DNA of 64,000 nt from Escherichia coli (GTDB taxonomy: Bacteria; Pseudomonadota; Gammaproteobacteria; Enterobacterales; Enterobacteriaceae): NCBI RefSeq assembly GCF_002854065.1, contig NZ_CP024147.1; one strand, 5' to 3'. Within the stretch, counting starts at the first letter, position 1, and every line of letters begins with the position of its first letter. The translations under genes were made by a program, and so were the position numbers. The notes beneath the pieces are model-generated. The model was not told where the DNA came from and made no database searches. It saw only the letters and a program-made list of their open reading frames with translations. Of this stretch, positions 1,405-61,740 are shown piece by piece.

Positions 1405-2589
1405 ATGGAACAGACCTGGCGCTGGTACGGCCCAAACGATCCGGTTTCTTTAGCTGATGTCCGTCAGGCGGGCGCGACTGGCGTGGTTACCGCTTTGCAC
1501 CATATCCCGAACGGTGAAGTATGGTCCGTAGAAGAGATCCTCAAACGCAAGGCTATCGTTGAAGATGCAGGCCTGGTGTGGTCTGTCGTAGAAAGCGTGC
1601 CAATTCACGAAGATATCAAAACCCACACTGGCAACTATGAGCAGTGGATCGCTAACTATCAGCAGACTCTGCGCAACCTGGCGCAGTGCGGTATTCGCAC
1701 CGTGTGCTACAACTTCATGCCGGTGCTCGACTGGACCCGTACTGACCTCGAATACGTGCTGCCAGACGGCTCCAAAGCTCTGCGCTTCGACCAGATCGAA
1801 TTCGCTGCATTCGAAATGCATATCCTGAAACGCCCAGGTGCGGAAGCGGATTACACCGAAGAAGAAATTGCTCAGGCAGCTGAACGCTTCGCCACTATGA
1901 GCGACGAAGACAAAGCGCGTCTGACCCGTAACATCATTGCCGGTCTGCCGGGCGCGGAAGAAGGGTACACCCTCGACCAGTTCCGTAAGCACCTGGAGCT
2001 GTACAAAGATATCGACAAAGCCAAACTGCGCGAAAACTTTGCCGTCTTCCTGAAGGCGATTATTCCGGTTGCCGAAGAAGTTGGCGTGCGTATGGCTGTT
2101 CACCCGGACGATCCGCCGCGCCCAATCCTCGGCCTGCCGCGCATTGTTTCTACCATTGAAGATATGCAGTGGATGGTTGATACCGTAAATAGCATGGCGA
2201 ACGGTTTCACCATGTGCACCGGTTCCTACGGCGTGCGTGCTGACAACGATCTGGTTGATATGATCAAGCAGTTCGGTCCGCGTATTTACTTCACCCATCT
2301 GCGCTCCACCATGCGTGAAGATAACCCGAAAACCTTCCACGAAGCGGCGCACCTGAACGGTGACGTTGATATGTACGAAGTGGTGAAAGCGATTGTTGAA
2401 GAAGAACACCGTCGTAAAGCGGAAGGCAAAGAAGACCTGATCCCGATGCGTCCGGACCACGGTCATCAGATGCTGGACGACCTGAAGAAGAAAACCAACC
2501 CAGGTTACTCCGCAATTGGTCGTCTGAAAGGCCTGGCCGAAGTTCGCGGTGTCGAACTGGCGATCCAGCGCGCTTTCTTTAGCCGTTAA
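1405..2589 (+). CDS. uxuA: Mannonate dehydratase
   Basis: Track ORF 1369..2589 trimmed to ATG 1405 ([23 protein letters not shown]...), 394 aa, AGAGGAAA Shine-Dalgarno upstream; the track start is a TTG extension. Confidence 0.95.
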
Positions 2590-2669
2590 TATCCACCGGC
2601 ATGGCTGCGCGCCGTGCCGGTTCCTTCTTCCTTGCCGTCACTCTCTGAAGACGGATTCTGGAGTTTACG

Positions 2670-4130
2670 ATGACTACTATTGTTGACAGCAATCTGCCGG
2701 TTGCCCGCCCGTCATGGGATCATTCTCGTCTGGAATCACGCATTGTGCATCTCGGTTGCGGGGCGTTTCACCGTGCGCACCAGGCGCTGTACACCCATCA
2801 TCTGCTGGAAAGCACCGACAGCGACTGGGGTATCTGCGAAGTTAACCTGATGCCAGGCAACGACCGCGTGCTGATCGAAAACCTGAAAAAACAGCAACTG
2901 CTGTACACCGTGGCGGAAAAAGGCGCGGAAAGCACCGAGCTGAAAATTATCGGTTCGATGAAAGAAGCGCTGCACCCGGAAATCGACGGCTGCGAAGGTA
3001 TTCTCAACGCGATGGCGCGTCCGCAAACGGCGATTGTCTCTCTGACGGTCACGGAAAAAGGCTACTGCGCTGATGCGGCAAGCGGTCAACTGGATCTCAA
3101 TAACCCGCTGATCAAGCACGATCTGGAAAACCCGACTGCGCCGAAGTCCGCGATTGGTTACATCGTCGAAGCCTTGCGTCTGCGTCGTGAAAAAGGGCTG
3201 AAAGCATTTACGGTGATGTCCTGCGATAACGTGCGTGAAAACGGTCATGTGGCGAAGGTCGCGGTACTGGGGCTGGCTCAGGCGCGTGACCCGCAGCTAG
3301 CGGCATGGATTGAAGAGAACGTCACCTTCCCGTGCACCATGGTTGACCGCATCGTTCCGGCGGCGACGCCAGAAACCTTACAGGAAATTGCTGACCAGCT
3401 GGGCGTTTACGACCCGTGCGCCATTGCCTGCGAACCGTTCCGTCAGTGGGTGATTGAAGATAATTTCGTTAATGGTCGCCCGGACTGGGATAAAGTGGGC
3501 GCACAGTTCGTTGCAGACGTTGTGCCGTTCGAAATGATGAAGCTGCGTATGCTGAACGGTAGCCACTCTTTCCTGGCGTACCTCGGTTACCTCGGCGGCT
3601 ATGAAACTATTGCCGACACCATGACTAACCCGGATTATCGCAAAGCGGCCTTTGCCCTGATGATGCAGGAACAAGCGCCAACGCTGTCGATGCCGGAAGG
3701 TACGGACCTGAACGCCTATGCGACGCTGCTGATCGAGCGTTTCAGCAACCCGTCTCTGCGTCACCGTACCTGGCAGATTGCGATGGACGGCAGCCAGAAG
3801 TTACCGCAGCGTCTGCTGGACCCGGTGCGTCTGCACCTGCAAAACGGCGGCAGCTGGCGTCACCTGGCGCTGGGCGTGGCTGGCTGGATGCGTTACACCC
3901 AGGGCGTGGATGAGCAGGGTAATGCCATTGACGTGGTCGACCCGATGCTGGCCGAGTTCCAGAAGATTAACGCGCAGTATCAGGGCGCAGACCGCGTGAA
4001 AGCGCTGCTAGGCCTGAGCGGTATTTTTGCCGATGATCTGCCGCAGAATGCCGACTTTGTTGGCGCGGTGACGGCGGCATATCAGCAGCTGTGCGAACGC
4101 GGTGCGCGCGAGTGTGTGGCTGCGCTGTAA
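2670..4130 (+). CDS. uxuB: D-mannonate oxidoreductase (fructuronate reductase)
   Basis: Track ORF, 486 aa, MTTIVDSNLPVARPSWDHSRL...; ATG verified at 2670. Confidence 0.95.
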   Translation: MTTIVDSNLPVARPSWDHSRLESRIVHLGCGAFHRAHQALYTHHLLESTDSDWGICEVNLMPGNDRVLIENLKKQQLLYTVAEKGAESTELKIIGSMKEALHPEIDGCEGILNAMARPQTAIVSLTVTEKGYCADAASGQLDLNNPLIKHDLENPTAPKSAIGYIVEALRLRREKGLKAFTVMSCDNVRENGHVAKVAVLGLAQARDPQLAAWIEENVTFPCTMVDRIVPAATPETLQEIADQLGVYDPCAIACEPFRQWVIEDNFVNGRPDWDKVGAQFVADVVPFEMMKLRMLNGSHSFLAYLGYLGGYETIADTMTNPDYRKAAFALMMQEQAPTLSMPEGTDLNAYATLLIERFSNPSLRHRTWQIAMDGSQKLPQRLLDPVRLHLQNGGSWRHLALGVAGWMRYTQGVDEQGNAIDVVDPMLAEFQKINAQYQGADRVKALLGLSGIFADDLPQNADFVGAVTAAYQQLCERGARECVAAL

Positions 4131-4265
4131 CTAACTGATTACCCTACAGACTTACTGGTCAATCAAACTGATATTTGGTTGACCAGTTTTCGTTTTTTTG
4201 CCCACCTGTACGTGCCAACTTCCAGTGCTAATGGTATAGTTTGAGATTAACAGGGGCCGTAAAAT

Positions 4266-4308
4266 TGCCCGTTGTAGGCCGGATAAGGCGTTCACGCCGC
4301 ATCCGGCA
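4266..4308. repeat. REP (repetitive extragenic palindrome) element
   Basis: gcccgttgtaggccggataaggcgttcacgccgcatccggcaaaa between uxuB and uxuR; canonical REP core GCCGGATAAGGCG...CGCATCCGGC. Confidence 0.6.
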
Positions 4309-4344
4309 AAAATTTGATTAACCGCACCTAACGGACACAACACC

Positions 4345-5118
4345 ATGAAATCTGCCACCTCTGCGCAAAGACCTTACCAGGAAGTCGGGGCGATGATCCG
4401 CGATCTGATCATAAAGACGCCGTACAATCCTGGCGAACGGCTGCCGCCGGAGCGTGAAATTGCAGAAATGCTTGATGTCACGCGGACGGTGGTACGTGAA
4501 GCGCTGATCATGCTGGAGATCAAAGGGCTGGTGGAAGTGCGCCGGGGTGCCGGTATCTATGTTCTTGATAGCTCAGGCAGCCACAACACAGACAGTTCGG
4601 ATGCCAACGTCTGTAATGATGCGGGTCCTTTTGAGCTGTTACAGGCGCGTCAGTTACTGGAAAGTAACATCGCGGAATTTGCCGCTTTGCAGGCTACCCG
4701 CGAAGATATCGTCAAAATGCGTCAGGCATTGCAACTGGAAGAGCGTGAACTGGCTTCCAGCGCGCCGGGTAGCAGCGAAAGCGGTGATATGCAGTTCCAT
4801 CTCGCCATTGCCGAAGCAACGCATAACAGCATGCTGGTGGAGTTATTCCGTCAGTCCTGGCAGTGGCGGGAAAACAATCCAATGTGGATCCAGTTGCACA
4901 GCCATCTGGATGACAGCCTGTATCGCAAAGAGTGGTTGGGCGATCACAAACAGATCCTCGCCGCGTTAATCAAAAAAGATGCCCGAGCGGCGAAGCTGGC
5001 AATGTGGCAGCATCTGGAAAACGTTAAGCAACGTCTGCTGGAATTCTCGAACGTTGACGATATTTATTTTGACGGCTATCTGTTTGATTCATGGCCGCTG
5101 GATAAAGTCGACGTCTGA
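4345..5118 (+). CDS. uxuR: GntR-family repressor of the uxu regulon
   Basis: Track ORF, 257 aa, N-terminal GntR-type HTH (ERLPPEREIAEMLDVTRTVVREAL). Confidence 0.95.
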   Translation: MKSATSAQRPYQEVGAMIRDLIIKTPYNPGERLPPEREIAEMLDVTRTVVREALIMLEIKGLVEVRRGAGIYVLDSSGSHNTDSSDANVCNDAGPFELLQARQLLESNIAEFAALQATREDIVKMRQALQLEERELASSAPGSSESGDMQFHLAIAEATHNSMLVELFRQSWQWRENNPMWIQLHSHLDDSLYRKEWLGDHKQILAALIKKDARAAKLAMWQHLENVKQRLLEFSNVDDIYFDGYLFDSWPLDKVDV

Positions 5119-5130
5119 CTTATTATAATA

Positions 5131-5162
5131 AGCGCAAGGGTAAACGTTCCTTGCGCTTTCTT
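5131..5162. terminator. Hairpin plus T-run between convergent uxuR and yjiC (likely bidirectional terminator)
   Basis: gcgcaagg-gtaaacgtt-ccttgcgc stem-loop followed by tttctt. Confidence 0.5.
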
Positions 5163-38743: not shown

Positions 38744-38892
<149 letters not shown>

Positions 38893-46505: not shown

Positions 46506-46912
<407 letters not shown>

Positions 46913-58532: not shown

Positions 58533-59765
58533 ATGTCGTCATTTGATTACCTGAAAACTGCCATCAAGCAACAGGGCTGCACGCTACAGCAGGTAGCTGA
58601 TGCCAGCGGTATGACCAAAGGGTATTTAAGCCAGTTACTGAATGCCAAAATTAAAAGCCCCAGCGCGCAAAAGCTGGAGGCGTTGCACCGTTTTTTGGGG
58701 CTTGAATTTCCCCGACAGAAGAAAACCATTGGTGTCGTATTCGGTAAGTTCTACCCGCTGCATACCGGACATATCTACCTTATCCAGCGCGCCTGTAGCC
58801 AGGTTGACGAGCTGCATATCATTATGGGTTTTGACGATACCCGCGACCGCGCGTTGTTTGAAGACAGCGCCATGTCGCAGCAGCCCACGGTGCCGGATCG
58901 TCTGCGCTGGTTATTACAAACTTTTAAATATCAGAAAAATATTCGCATTCATGCTTTCAACGAAGAGGGCATGGAGCCGTATCCGCACGGCTGGGATGTG
59001 TGGAGCAACGGCATCAAAAAGTTTATGGCTGAAAAGGGGATTCAGCCGGACCTGATCTACACCTCGGAAGAAGCCGATGCGCCACAGTATATGGAACATC
59101 TGGGGATCGATACGGTGCTGGTCGATCCGAAACGTACCTTTATGAGTATCAGCGGTGCGCAGATCCGCGAAAACCCGTTCCGCTACTGGGAATATATTCC
59201 TACGGAAGTGAAGCCGTTCTTTGTACGTACCGTGGCGATCCTTGGTGGCGAGTCGAGCGGTAAATCCACCCTGGTAAACAAACTTGCCAATATCTTCAAT
59301 ACCACCAGTGCGTGGGAATATGGTCGCGATTATGTCTTTTCACACCTCGGCGGTGATGAGATCGCATTGCAGTATTCCGATTACGATAAAATCGCGCTGG
59401 GCCACGCACAATACATTGATTTTGCAGTGAAATATGCCAATAAAGTGGCGTTTATTGACACTGATTTTGTCACTACCCAGGCGTTCTGCAAAAAGTACGA
59501 AGGGCGTGAGCATCCGTTCGTACAGGCGTTGATTGATGAATACCGTTTCGATCTGGTGATCCTGCTGGAGAACAACACGCCGTGGGTGGCGGATGGTTTA
59601 CGCAGCCTCGGCAGTTCGGTGGATCGCAAAGAGTTCCAGAACTTGCTGGTGGAGATGCTGGAAGAGAACAATATCGAATTCGTGCGGGTTGAAGAGGACG
59701 ATTATGACAGCCGTTTCCTTCGCTGCGTGGAGCTGGTGCGGGAGATGATGGGGGAGCAGGGATAA
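58533..59765 (+). CDS. nadR: Bifunctional NMN adenylyltransferase / ribosylnicotinamide kinase and NAD regulon repressor
   Basis: Track ORF 58512..59765 trimmed to MSSFDYLKTAIKQQGCTLQQVADASGMTKGYLSQL (HTH), 410 aa. Confidence 0.9.
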   Translation: MSSFDYLKTAIKQQGCTLQQVADASGMTKGYLSQLLNAKIKSPSAQKLEALHRFLGLEFPRQKKTIGVVFGKFYPLHTGHIYLIQRACSQVDELHIIMGFDDTRDRALFEDSAMSQQPTVPDRLRWLLQTFKYQKNIRIHAFNEEGMEPYPHGWDVWSNGIKKFMAEKGIQPDLIYTSEEADAPQYMEHLGIDTVLVDPKRTFMSISGAQIRENPFRYWEYIPTEVKPFFVRTVAILGGESSGKSTLVNKLANIFNTTSAWEYGRDYVFSHLGGDEIALQYSDYDKIALGHAQYIDFAVKYANKVAFIDTDFVTTQAFCKKYEGREHPFVQALIDEYRFDLVILLENNTPWVADGLRSLGSSVDRKEFQNLLVEMLEENNIEFVRVEEDDYDSRFLRCVELVREMMGEQG

Positions 59766-59798
59766 CCGCGATGAAACGGCTCAAAGGCGAGGTATAAA

Positions 59799-59966
59799 AT
59801 GAGTTTTTTTGATGAGTTGAAAACCTCTCTGGAAGAGGCTGTCGAGATTAAACAAGGTTTGAAAGAACCAGCACGGATGACCCGCTACGAAATTGCGGAT
59901 GCTAAGGCTGTTGTAGACCGGAAAAGGTGTTCACGCCGCATCCGGCATTCGGTGCTCAATGCCTGA
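59799..59966 (+). other. Short ORF (55 codons) with an antitoxin-like N-terminus whose 3' end runs into a REP element; possible truncated gene remnant
   Basis: GAGGT Shine-Dalgarno then ATG: MSFFDELKTSLEEAVEIKQGLKEPARMTRYEIADAKAVVDRKRCSRRIRHSVLNA*; residues from about 40 onward are encoded by REP sequence. Confidence 0.3.
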
Positions 59967-60072
59967 TGCGACGCTTACCGCGTCTTATCAGGCCTGGAGA
60001 TTCACAACGTATTGAAATTTCTTGGTTTGTAGGCCGGATAAGGCGTTCACGCCGCATCCGGCATTTTACGCA
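59915..60072. repeat. REP/BIME elements between nadR and ettA
   Basis: Two or more ggataaggcgttcacgccgcatccggca cores. Confidence 0.6.
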
Positions 60073-61740
60073 TTACTTCGCAATACGCTTGTACTTGATA
60101 CGCTTCGGCTCCAGTGCGTCTGCGCCCAGCGTGCGTTTCTTGTACTCTTCGTACTCAGTAAAGTTACCTTCGAAGAACTCAACTTTACCTTCATCCTGGT
60201 AGTCCAGGATGTGCGTGGCGATACGGTCGAGGAACCAACGGTCGTGCGAGATAACCATCGCACAGCCCGGGAACTCCAGCAGGGCGTTTTCCAGCGCGCG
60301 CAGGGTTTCGATATCCAGGTCGTTGGTTGGTTCGTCGAGCAGCAGCATGTTGCCGCCAACCTGCAGCAGCTTCGCCAGATGCAGACGACCGCGCTCACCA
60401 CCGGAAAGTTCACCAACGCGTTTACCCTGATCAACCCCTTTAAAGTTAAAGCGGCCAACGTAGGCGCGGCTTGGCATCTCGGTGTTGCCGATCTTCATAA
60501 TATCCAGCCCGCCGGAAACTTCTTCCCAAACGGTTTTGCTGTTATCCATTGAGTCACGGAACTGATCAACCGATGCCAGTTTCACCGTTTCACCTAAAGT
60601 GATGGTGCCGCTGTCCGGCTGTTCCTGACCAGAGATCATACGGAACAGGGTCGATTTACCCGCGCCGTTCGGACCGATGATCCCGACGATTGCCCCTTTT
60701 GGGATCGAGAAGCTCAGGTCATCAATCAGCAGGCGATCACCGTAGGATTTACGCAGGTTGCTGACTTCCAGCACTTTATCGCCCAGACGCGGTCCAGGTG
60801 GAATAAACAGTTCGTTGGTTTCGTTACGTTTCTGATATTCGGTGCTGTTCAGCTCTTCAAAGCGTGCCAGACGTGCTTTACCTTTCGACTGGCGGCCTTT
60901 AGTTCCCTGACGTACCCACTCCAGCTCTTTCTCGATCGACTTACGACGCGCCGCTTCTTGTGAAGCTTCCTGCGCCAGGCGCTGATCTTTCTGCTCCAGC
61001 CAGGAGGAGTAGTTGCCTTCCCACGGAATACCTTCACCGCGGTCAAGTTCGAGGATCCAGCCTGCAACGTTATCGAGGAAGTAACGGTCGTGAGTAATCG
61101 CCACAACGGTGCCTTCGAAGTCGTGCAGGAAGCGTTCCAGCCAGGCCACGGATTCGGCATCCAGGTGGTTGGTCGGTTCGTCGAGCAGCAGCATGTCTGG
61201 TTTTTCCAGAAGCAGGCGGCACAACGCCACGCGACGACGCTCACCACCGGAGAGGTTAGCGATTTTCGCGTCCCAGTCCGGCAGACGCAGCGCATCCGCC
61301 GCACGCTCCAGCTGTACGTTCAGGTTATGACCGTCGTGAGCCTGAATGATCTCTTCCAGACGGCCTTGTTCAGCGGCCAGCTTGTCAAAATCGGCATCCG
61401 GATCGGCGTACAGCGCATACACTTCATCCAGGCGTTTCAGGGCGTTAACCACTTCAGAAACCGCTTCTTCAATGGACTCACGCACGGTGTGTTCCGGGTT
61501 CAGCTGCGGTTCCTGCGGCAGATAACCAATCTTGATGTCTGGCTGCGGACGTGCTTCACCTTCGATGTCTTTATCAATGCCCGCCATAATGCGCAGCAGG
61601 GTAGACTTACCCGCGCCGTTCAGACCCAGGACACCAATTTTTGCCCCAGGGAAGAAACTCAGAGAGATGTTTTTCAAAATATGACGTTTCGGCGGAACAA
61701 CTTTGCCGACACGATGCATGGTATAAACGAATTGAGCCAC
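60073..61740 (-). CDS. ettA: Energy-dependent translational throttle ABC-F ATPase EttA (YjjK)
   Basis: Track ORF, 555 aa, two ABC cassettes (GLNGAGKST / LSGGERRRVAL and GPNGAGKSTL / LSGGERGRL). Confidence 0.95.
   Translation of the reverse strand: MAQFVYTMHRVGKVVPPKRHILKNISLSFFPGAKIGVLGLNGAGKSTLLRIMAGIDKDIEGEARPQPDIKIGYLPQEPQLNPEHTVRESIEEAVSEVVNALKRLDEVYALYADPDADFDKLAAEQGRLEEIIQAHDGHNLNVQLERAADALRLPDWDAKIANLSGGERRRVALCRLLLEKPDMLLLDEPTNHLDAESVAWLERFLHDFEGTVVAITHDRYFLDNVAGWILELDRGEGIPWEGNYSSWLEQKDQRLAQEASQEAARRKSIEKELEWVRQGTKGRQSKGKARLARFEELNSTEYQKRNETNELFIPPGPRLGDKVLEVSNLRKSYGDRLLIDDLSFSIPKGAIVGIIGPNGAGKSTLFRMISGQEQPDSGTITLGETVKLASVDQFRDSMDNSKTVWEEVSGGLDIMKIGNTEMPSRAYVGRFNFKGVDQGKRVGELSGGERGRLHLAKLLQVGGNMLLLDEPTNDLDIETLRALENALLEFPGCAMVISHDRWFLDRIATHILDYQDEGKVEFFEGNFTEYEEYKKRTLGADALEPKRIKYKRIAK

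Follow-up and report, generated by a model that had tools for sequence, protein, structure and literature searches.

A truncated nadS allele in the nadR-ettA spacer of Escherichia coli, very probably a decaying orphan fragment of a HigB2/HigA2-type toxin-antitoxin operon

The window studied herein, a 64-kb stretch of Escherichia coli DNA, contains a section with the gene order radA, nadR (plus strand), a 307-nt spacer, convergent ettA (minus strand), and slt. A short ORF of 55 codons, the nadS stub, sits in the spacer between the nadR stop and ettA (Table 1). Its frame and its GAGGT Shine-Dalgarno were as the first-pass annotation had described them, although that annotation remarked neither on the existing nadS annotation nor on the approximately 29 nt of a toxin gene that survive upstream. 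The nadS locus is already known: it is annotated in RefSeq E. coli genomes, and the nadR-ettA spacer is annotated nadS across 5426 complete E. coli genomes. PGAP treats this one 55-codon frame inconsistently, calling it coding, as a 55-aa CDS, in K-12 (WP_000007444.1) and O157:H7 (WP_000007440.1), and a pseudogene (“incomplete; missing C-terminus”) of exactly the first 114 nt in strains with DNA identical to the window. For alleles with an ATA in place of the ATG and a deleted T, described below, the PGAP label also varies between pseudogene and none. The exact 55-aa protein is found in public protein collections, under the names “NadS family protein” or “hypothetical protein”.

Table 1. Features of the nadR-ettA spacer and its borders (window coordinates)
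Feature	Position	Strand	Remarks
nadR stop	59763-59765		
3' remnant of HigB2-type toxin gene (RelE/ParE, PF06296)	59770..59798	+	last 29 nt, ~9 codons
Shine-Dalgarno GAGGT of nadS	59789-59793	+	5 nt before ATG; read from sequence
55-codon ORF (nadS stub)	59799..59966	+	ATG start; translation MSFFDELKTSLEEAVEIKQGLKEPARMTRYEIADAKAVVDRKRCSRRIRHSVLNA
nadS codons 1-38	59799..59912	+	surviving antitoxin N-terminal segment; NF041265, M1/5 alignment
REP-encoded ORF tail	59913..59966	+	17 codons VDRKRCSRRIRHSVLNA and stop; no NadS homology
REP1 of BIME	59911..59949		repeat search and REP consensus match
REP2 of BIME	59955..59999		inverted-orientation hairpin; holds ORF stop codon
REP3 of BIME	60027..60065		adjoins ettA stop
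ettA	60073..61740	-	convergent with nadS stub

The family identity of the ORF could be established from its first 38 residues. Specifically, the NCBIfam profile NF041265 (NadS), an equivalog model of 94 positions with a curated cut-off of 60 bits, matched the window ORF above that cut-off (69.4 bits; E 2.5e-19), with residues 1-46 aligned to profile positions 1-46. True homology stops at residue 38, and the C-terminal HTH that belongs to a full-length match is absent. Given that the profile match is partial and the HTH missing, the window ORF is a truncated NadS member or pseudogene. The intact NadS of E. coli M1/5 scored 182.6 bits against the same profile, found the window by tblastn at E 3e-20, and is identical to the stub at 35 of 38 residues; the profile and tblastn values together place the homology far beyond chance. 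A Pfam scan of the 55-aa ORF returned no domain match and no HTH, since the surviving part is without a Pfam domain, while intact M1/5 NadS contains Pfam HTH_3 (E 3e-10). Intact NadS also matched MqsA_antitoxin (E 5.6e-4) and PRK10072 (47.7 bits), both under their curated cut-offs (30 and 110 bits, respectively). The earlier suggestion of a HigA2-type XRE antitoxin N terminus was borne out in that the family is NadS, its toxin is a HigB-2 homologue, and NadS residues 33-91 align by phmmer to the HTH domain of HigA-2 (residues 42-100; E 2e-6). The phmmer comparison returned no alignment for NadS residues 1-32, and, with only the HTH parts aligned, the equivalence of the NadS and HigA2 N termini is a positional one.

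The anatomy of the remnant was read from an alignment of the window with the intact M1/5 operon. Four unmatched bases follow the nadR stop, after which the end of the toxin gene begins, with its stop codon, TAA, at 59795-59797; the corresponding end of the M1/5 toxin gene reads ...GACGAAACTGCTCAAAGGCGAGATATAA. By megablast, the matches of remnant genomes start at query position 396-400 of the intact operon, and the GAGGT that serves nadS falls, in the intact operon, within the last codons of the toxin gene. Directly upstream of nadS, a mini-ORF on the plus strand (59771-59797; ATG AAA CGG CTC AAA GGC GAG GTA TAA, or MKRLKGEV and a stop) reads as the fossil C terminus of the toxin (LTKLLKGEI and a stop in M1/5) and not as an independent leader peptide. 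The nadS codons 1-38 that follow are the same 114 nt to which PGAP limits the pseudogene in a window-identical strain and are, by analogy, positionally equivalent to the toxin-neutralizing segment of Vibrio cholerae HigA2. Beyond them, where intact nadS of M1/5 runs on into HTH-coding sequence, the window carries REP DNA. The first-pass annotation had put the start of REP-encoded sequence after about 40 codons; the REP tail and stop stand, while the NadS homology ends earlier than that, at codon 38 (59912). Missing from the window, therefore, are the promoter/operator region (91 nt in M1/5), 301 of the 330 nt of toxin-coding sequence, and NadS residues 39-94, which comprise the HTH domain. Of an upstream PF06296 toxin gene, merely the 29 nt of the 3' end are left, and neither an HTH, its part having been replaced by REP, nor an autoregulated promoter remains. 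Further, no toxin homologue was found within the 64-kb window. The stub peptide is unable to bind DNA, is without a cognate toxin in the window, and is most likely without function.

The REP sequence that ends the frame is part of a larger element. The three REPs next to ettA form one BIME, made of palindromic copies of ~35 nt in alternating orientation, in which REP1 and REP3 are a 39-nt direct repeat and REP2 has the opposite orientation. A 34-nt REP consensus matched 59913-59946 with three mismatches and 60029-60062 with none. Across the window, there are eight canonical consensus matches, versus zero expected by chance, and a spacer query holding the REPs matched each E. coli genome at a median of 38 sites. 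Compared with this three-REP BIME, strains with the intact operon carry one diverged REP, at the position of REP3 beside ettA. The Rfam model RF02564 (naRNA4; nucleoid-associated ncRNA 4/CssrE, which is REP-derived) matched 59916-59994 on the plus strand (69.1 bits; gathering score 59.5) and, more weakly, 60032-60069; a distinct sRNA gene was considered here and set aside, as this is probably a generic match to a REP pair. Further canonical REPs of the window lie on the minus strand at 4274-4307, 38745-38888 (a pair, at 38745 and 38855), and 46596-46831 (a three-copy array at 46596, 46697, and 46798, with a spacing of ~101 nt).

The intact form of the locus is still present in the species. In E. 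coli M1/5, the nadR-ettA interval encodes a 110-aa toxin of the RelE/ParE family and, 1 nt past the toxin stop, the 94-aa NadS, a gap to the nadS ATG that is retained in more than 50 intact pairs. The M1/5 toxin (Pfam PF06296) matches V. cholerae HigB-2 (PDB 5JA8/8A0X) at E 8e-16, with 32-36% identity. The intact 765-bp module is found at nadR-ettA in 674 of the 5426 complete E. coli genomes (12%; M1/5 included), and the operon is also intact at this site in E. coli GN03204 and NU14. The same order as in intact E. coli, radA-nadR-toxin-NadS-ettA-slt, occurs in Escherichia fergusonii, a statement based on the type-strain record (ATCC 35469); another record with a protein named E. fergusonii was not used, its flanks being E. 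coli-like. Thus, the longer intact homologue that had been sought in the nadR-ettA spacer exists, in M1/5, in 673 other E. coli genomes, and in the E. fergusonii type strain, which upholds the earlier reading of the ORF as the remnant of a toxin-antitoxin gene truncated by REP/BIME. The NadS protein encoded by the intact alleles of M1/5, GN03204, and a third strain is identical, despite differences between these strains in the DNA of the toxin gene and of nadR. In the 91-nt spacer between nadR and the toxin of M1/5 (1567-1657 of the extracted locus), there are GTAC-containing palindromes, GTACTTAGTAC and GGTGTACAATGTACC, which are plausible candidates for NadS operator sites; a consensus promoter scan of this spacer returned no sigma-70 match.

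Beyond Escherichia, the toxin-NadS pair occurs widely, in groups ranging from Enterobacterales to Alteromonadales and Halomonadaceae, with identities of 70-89%. Its placement differs, as NadS adjoined neither nadR nor ettA in any of 79 non-E. coli loci. This makes the nadR-ettA placement specific to Escherichia, and “NadS” is a positional name, with no tie to NAD metabolism. The family is carried by 728 plasmid records, 138 of them at 80-90% identity, a set that includes 5-13-kb mobilizable plasmids of Shigella and E. coli with the toxin immediately upstream; in phage records, it is rare. Two or three E. coli “plasmid” records, along with the PLSDB entry NZ_CP134663.1 (4.9 Mb), carry the chromosomal nadS segment and are probably mislabeled chromosomes or chromosomal fragments.

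The alleles of different lineages suggest an order in which the operon was lost. A common left junction, GATAACCG(C/T)GA(T/C)GAAAC, was found in all of the E. coli remnants examined, and this points to a single deletion of the toxin. That event, of ~400 bp, would have taken the promoter/operator and the toxin gene except for its last 29 nt. The HTH-coding two thirds of the orphaned nadS would then have been lost, through replacement by REP/BIME from codon 39 onward in most E. coli and at an island junction after codon 42 in some lineages. In a third step, the stub would go on decaying neutrally, with the ATG, Shine-Dalgarno, and frame surviving by chance in the lineage of the window. The two versions of the second step can be distinguished in strains AR_0006 and DETEC-P666. 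Both share the V35A/K36 changes and the junction left by the toxin deletion in E. coli, and their nadS still has codons 38-42 and is interrupted after codon ~42 by an unrelated gene island and not by REP; hence, REP replacement and the island junction are two different ways in which nadS, orphaned beforehand, was later truncated. The island (2531-5145 of the extracted AR_0006 locus and 1600-3202 of that of DETEC-P666) encodes, on the minus strand, a DUF1471 protein, an SRPBCC protein, an SDR oxidoreductase, and an aldo/keto reductase, and ettA is not adjacent. In FDN-9, codon 38 is fused to a single REP, and in A42 the remnant and REP1 are wholly lost; strain Trp01 was left out as an engineered laboratory deletion. 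A different deletion, of ~300 bp, is seen in Escherichia sp. MOD1-EC7003 (3890-4290 of the extracted locus), where the promoter and the first ~80 toxin codons are gone, about 95 nt of the toxin 3' end are left, and nadS is full length (94 aa). This nadS is an orphan antitoxin without a promoter of its own. Because the deletion differs from that of E. coli, loss of the toxin with retention of the antitoxin has happened at least twice, and the intact nadS beside a lost toxin supports a toxin-first order of loss.

The population data revealed how far this decay has proceeded. Among the 5426 complete E. coli genomes surveyed, 4996 contain the junction of toxin end and nadS start, about 4320 bear the remnant, and in about 430 the remnant is completely absent. 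The ATG type, which by blastn matches the window without a difference over the 46 nt that surround the start, accounts for 1405 genomes. The start codon and frame have been destroyed in 2495, through ATG>ATA together with a 1-nt deletion in a T run, and other alleles combine ATG>TTG with a 10-bp deletion. Selection was assessed over the 114 nt of nine remnant alleles, in which 21 unique substitutions comprised 16 nonsynonymous and 5 synonymous changes, in line with a neutral expectation of 78% nonsynonymous (binomial p=0.79). Between the window and K-12, the stub has pN=0.045 and pS=0.041 (pN/pS about 1.1), versus pN=0.003 and pS=0.161 (ratio about 0.02) for nadR. The substitutions strike S10, A14, V27, Y30, A33, and V35, positions at which 59 distinct intact NadS proteins show little or no variation, and comprise V27M and V35A in the window; Y30H, A33E, and V35A in K-12; S10F in FDN-9; and A14T in DETEC-P666. 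With start and frame lost in 2495 of the 5426 genomes and pN/pS at about 1, the stub lacks the conservation across strains and the purifying selection by which a small ORF would be recognized. This neutral pattern, the disabling lesions, and the replacement of family-invariant residues indicate, at the level of sequence, that the stub behaves as a neutrally decaying pseudogene. Hence, the proposal of an independent small protein is disfavored, both by the neutral substitutions and because nearly half of E. coli have lost the ORF.

The stub could nevertheless still be expressed. Terminator prediction returned nothing on the plus strand from nadR to the ORF, and an internal promoter was rejected, since transcription from the sole sigma-70-like match (59771-59800) would begin no earlier than the ATG; the stub is therefore probably transcribed by read-through from nadR. 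With its Shine-Dalgarno and ATG on the nadR transcript, translation is expected and would not demonstrate a function, and the product would be a 55-aa peptide made of a former toxin-binding segment and 17 REP-encoded residues. A PIRT-Seq reporter-transposon screen in E. coli BW25113 detected nadS among the PGAP-annotated genes that are translated, which its authors term the first laboratory evidence of nadS expression (PMC12350097). As to what such a peptide might resemble, V. cholerae HigA2 has an intrinsically disordered N terminus of ~36 residues that, on HigB2, becomes a helix at 3-22 followed by a strand at 28-37; residues 3-22, as a peptide, are enough to neutralize HigB2, and the C-terminal HTH dimerizes and binds DNA (PMC5416850). 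An AlphaFold2 model of a fusion of the M1/5 toxin, a (GGGGS)5 linker, and the window ORF, built with 26 paired toxin and NadS rows, predicted a helix for ORF residues 3-18 (pLDDT 94-98) and a beta strand for residues 26-31, paralleling the helix and strand of HigA2, and a low-confidence helix (pLDDT about 53) for the REP-encoded tail. The toxin domain was confident, and its best PDB matches were HigB2 chains (Foldseek TM 0.79-0.85). The model supports a correspondence of the stub to the toxin-binding segment and to nothing else; it is silent on affinity and on in vivo function.

These observations bear on whether the 55-aa stub might be a retained micro-antitoxin, a “headless” antitoxin of the ATG-type lineages (the window, K-12, and O157; about a quarter of E. 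coli) whose N-terminal helix and strand neutralize incoming toxins of HigB2 type. Mechanistically, a free HigA2-like peptide made from the nadR transcript would blunt addiction by the NadS/HigB2-type modules of small mobilizable plasmids, a role in anti-addiction or cross-immunity against toxins on plasmids and other mobile elements. The reported translation of K-12 nadS, the sufficiency of the HigA2 3-22 peptide, the predicted helix and strand, and the close toxin-NadS pairs on 138 plasmids, to whose N termini the remnant is identical at 29-30 of 38 residues, all favor such a role. Further observations sit uneasily with the stub being a remnant only: 1405 genomes keep the ATG-type start region unchanged, the 38 residues left are the segment that suffices for toxin neutralization in the V. 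cholerae homologue, and AlphaFold2 still gives that segment a confident helix and a strand. In addition, the selection test covers just nine remnant alleles and 114 nt. Were this so, the stub would count as a naturally occurring minimal antitoxin that also acts against addiction, but the population data speak against it. Purifying selection is not seen in the stub alleles, start and frame are gone in 2495 of the ~4320 remnant genomes and others carry the 10-bp deletion, and, within the predicted binding segment, the window and K-12 have substitutions at residues that are invariant in the family. Further, the AlphaFold2 result mostly mirrors the full-length family alignment. We therefore regard a retained micro-antitoxin as improbable, and a residual antitoxin role for the stub, while conceivable, as unlikely. 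With regard to the small-protein proposal, translation has been reported for K-12, and a selected function is disfavored by the population data.

Even less credence, close to none, is due to the reverse history, in which the remnant state is ancestral and noncoding, the operon was inserted later in a minority of strains, and the window ORF is a chance frame. The operon is intact in only the 12% of genomes noted above, and the NadS family is mobile and plasmid-borne, both of which this history would accommodate. It is refuted, however, by the junction alignments, in that the window holds the last 29 nt of the toxin and nadS codons 1-38, contiguous and in operon order, neither of which an empty site would have. 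The shared 29-nt toxin end likewise speaks against a recent insertion of the operon with flanks of its own, and the outgroup E. fergusonii has the intact operon at the same site, Escherichia sp. MOD1-EC7003 has an independent partial deletion, and a protein-level match of E 2.5e-19 is at odds with a chance frame. We thus conclude, with high confidence, that the window ORF is a truncated nadS allele, the decaying orphan fragment of a HigB2/HigA2-type type II toxin-antitoxin operon.

The decaying orphan fragment documents the stepwise death of a chromosomal type II toxin-antitoxin module, in which the toxin, then the DNA-binding domain of the antitoxin, and then the start codon are lost, with all of the intermediate decay states still segregating in Escherichia. 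It also illustrates that REP/BIME DNA can furnish the C terminus and stop of an ORF that pipelines call a gene or a pseudogene, and it offers a caution for small-ORF catalogues, as a gene found translated in a reporter screen, here K-12 nadS, need not have a selected function. As a class, however, type II toxin-antitoxin remnants beside a BIME are well understood, and the import of this one beyond annotation hygiene is small.

Compared with known systems, the window allele is closest to the nadS annotated in K-12 and O157, with which it shares the locus, the 55-codon frame, and the REP-encoded tail. It differs from the K-12 allele at four residues, and there is no structural difference from annotated nadS, only that of CDS versus pseudogene status and a few substitutions. 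The Shine-Dalgarno and start context are also alike between the stub and the intact M1/5 operon. That intact operon, in turn, shares a toxin-first gene order with V. cholerae HigB2-HigA2 (PDB 5JAA, 8A0X; Hadzi et al. 2017, PMC5416850), and both antitoxins place an N-terminal segment before a C-terminal HTH, the segment of NadS being about 9 residues shorter; relative to that system, the window copy is without HTH and without toxin. The MqsA/YgiT (COG2944) and YiaG-type HTH regulators have an XRE-type HTH related to that of intact NadS, by weak matches; NadS lacks a zinc-ribbon domain, and the window stub is devoid of an HTH. Finally, the BIME resembles ordinary E. coli REP/BIME elements in its canonical sequences, which occur in tens of copies per genome, but here REP1 abuts and replaces coding sequence, such that 17 codons and the stop of the ORF are REP DNA.
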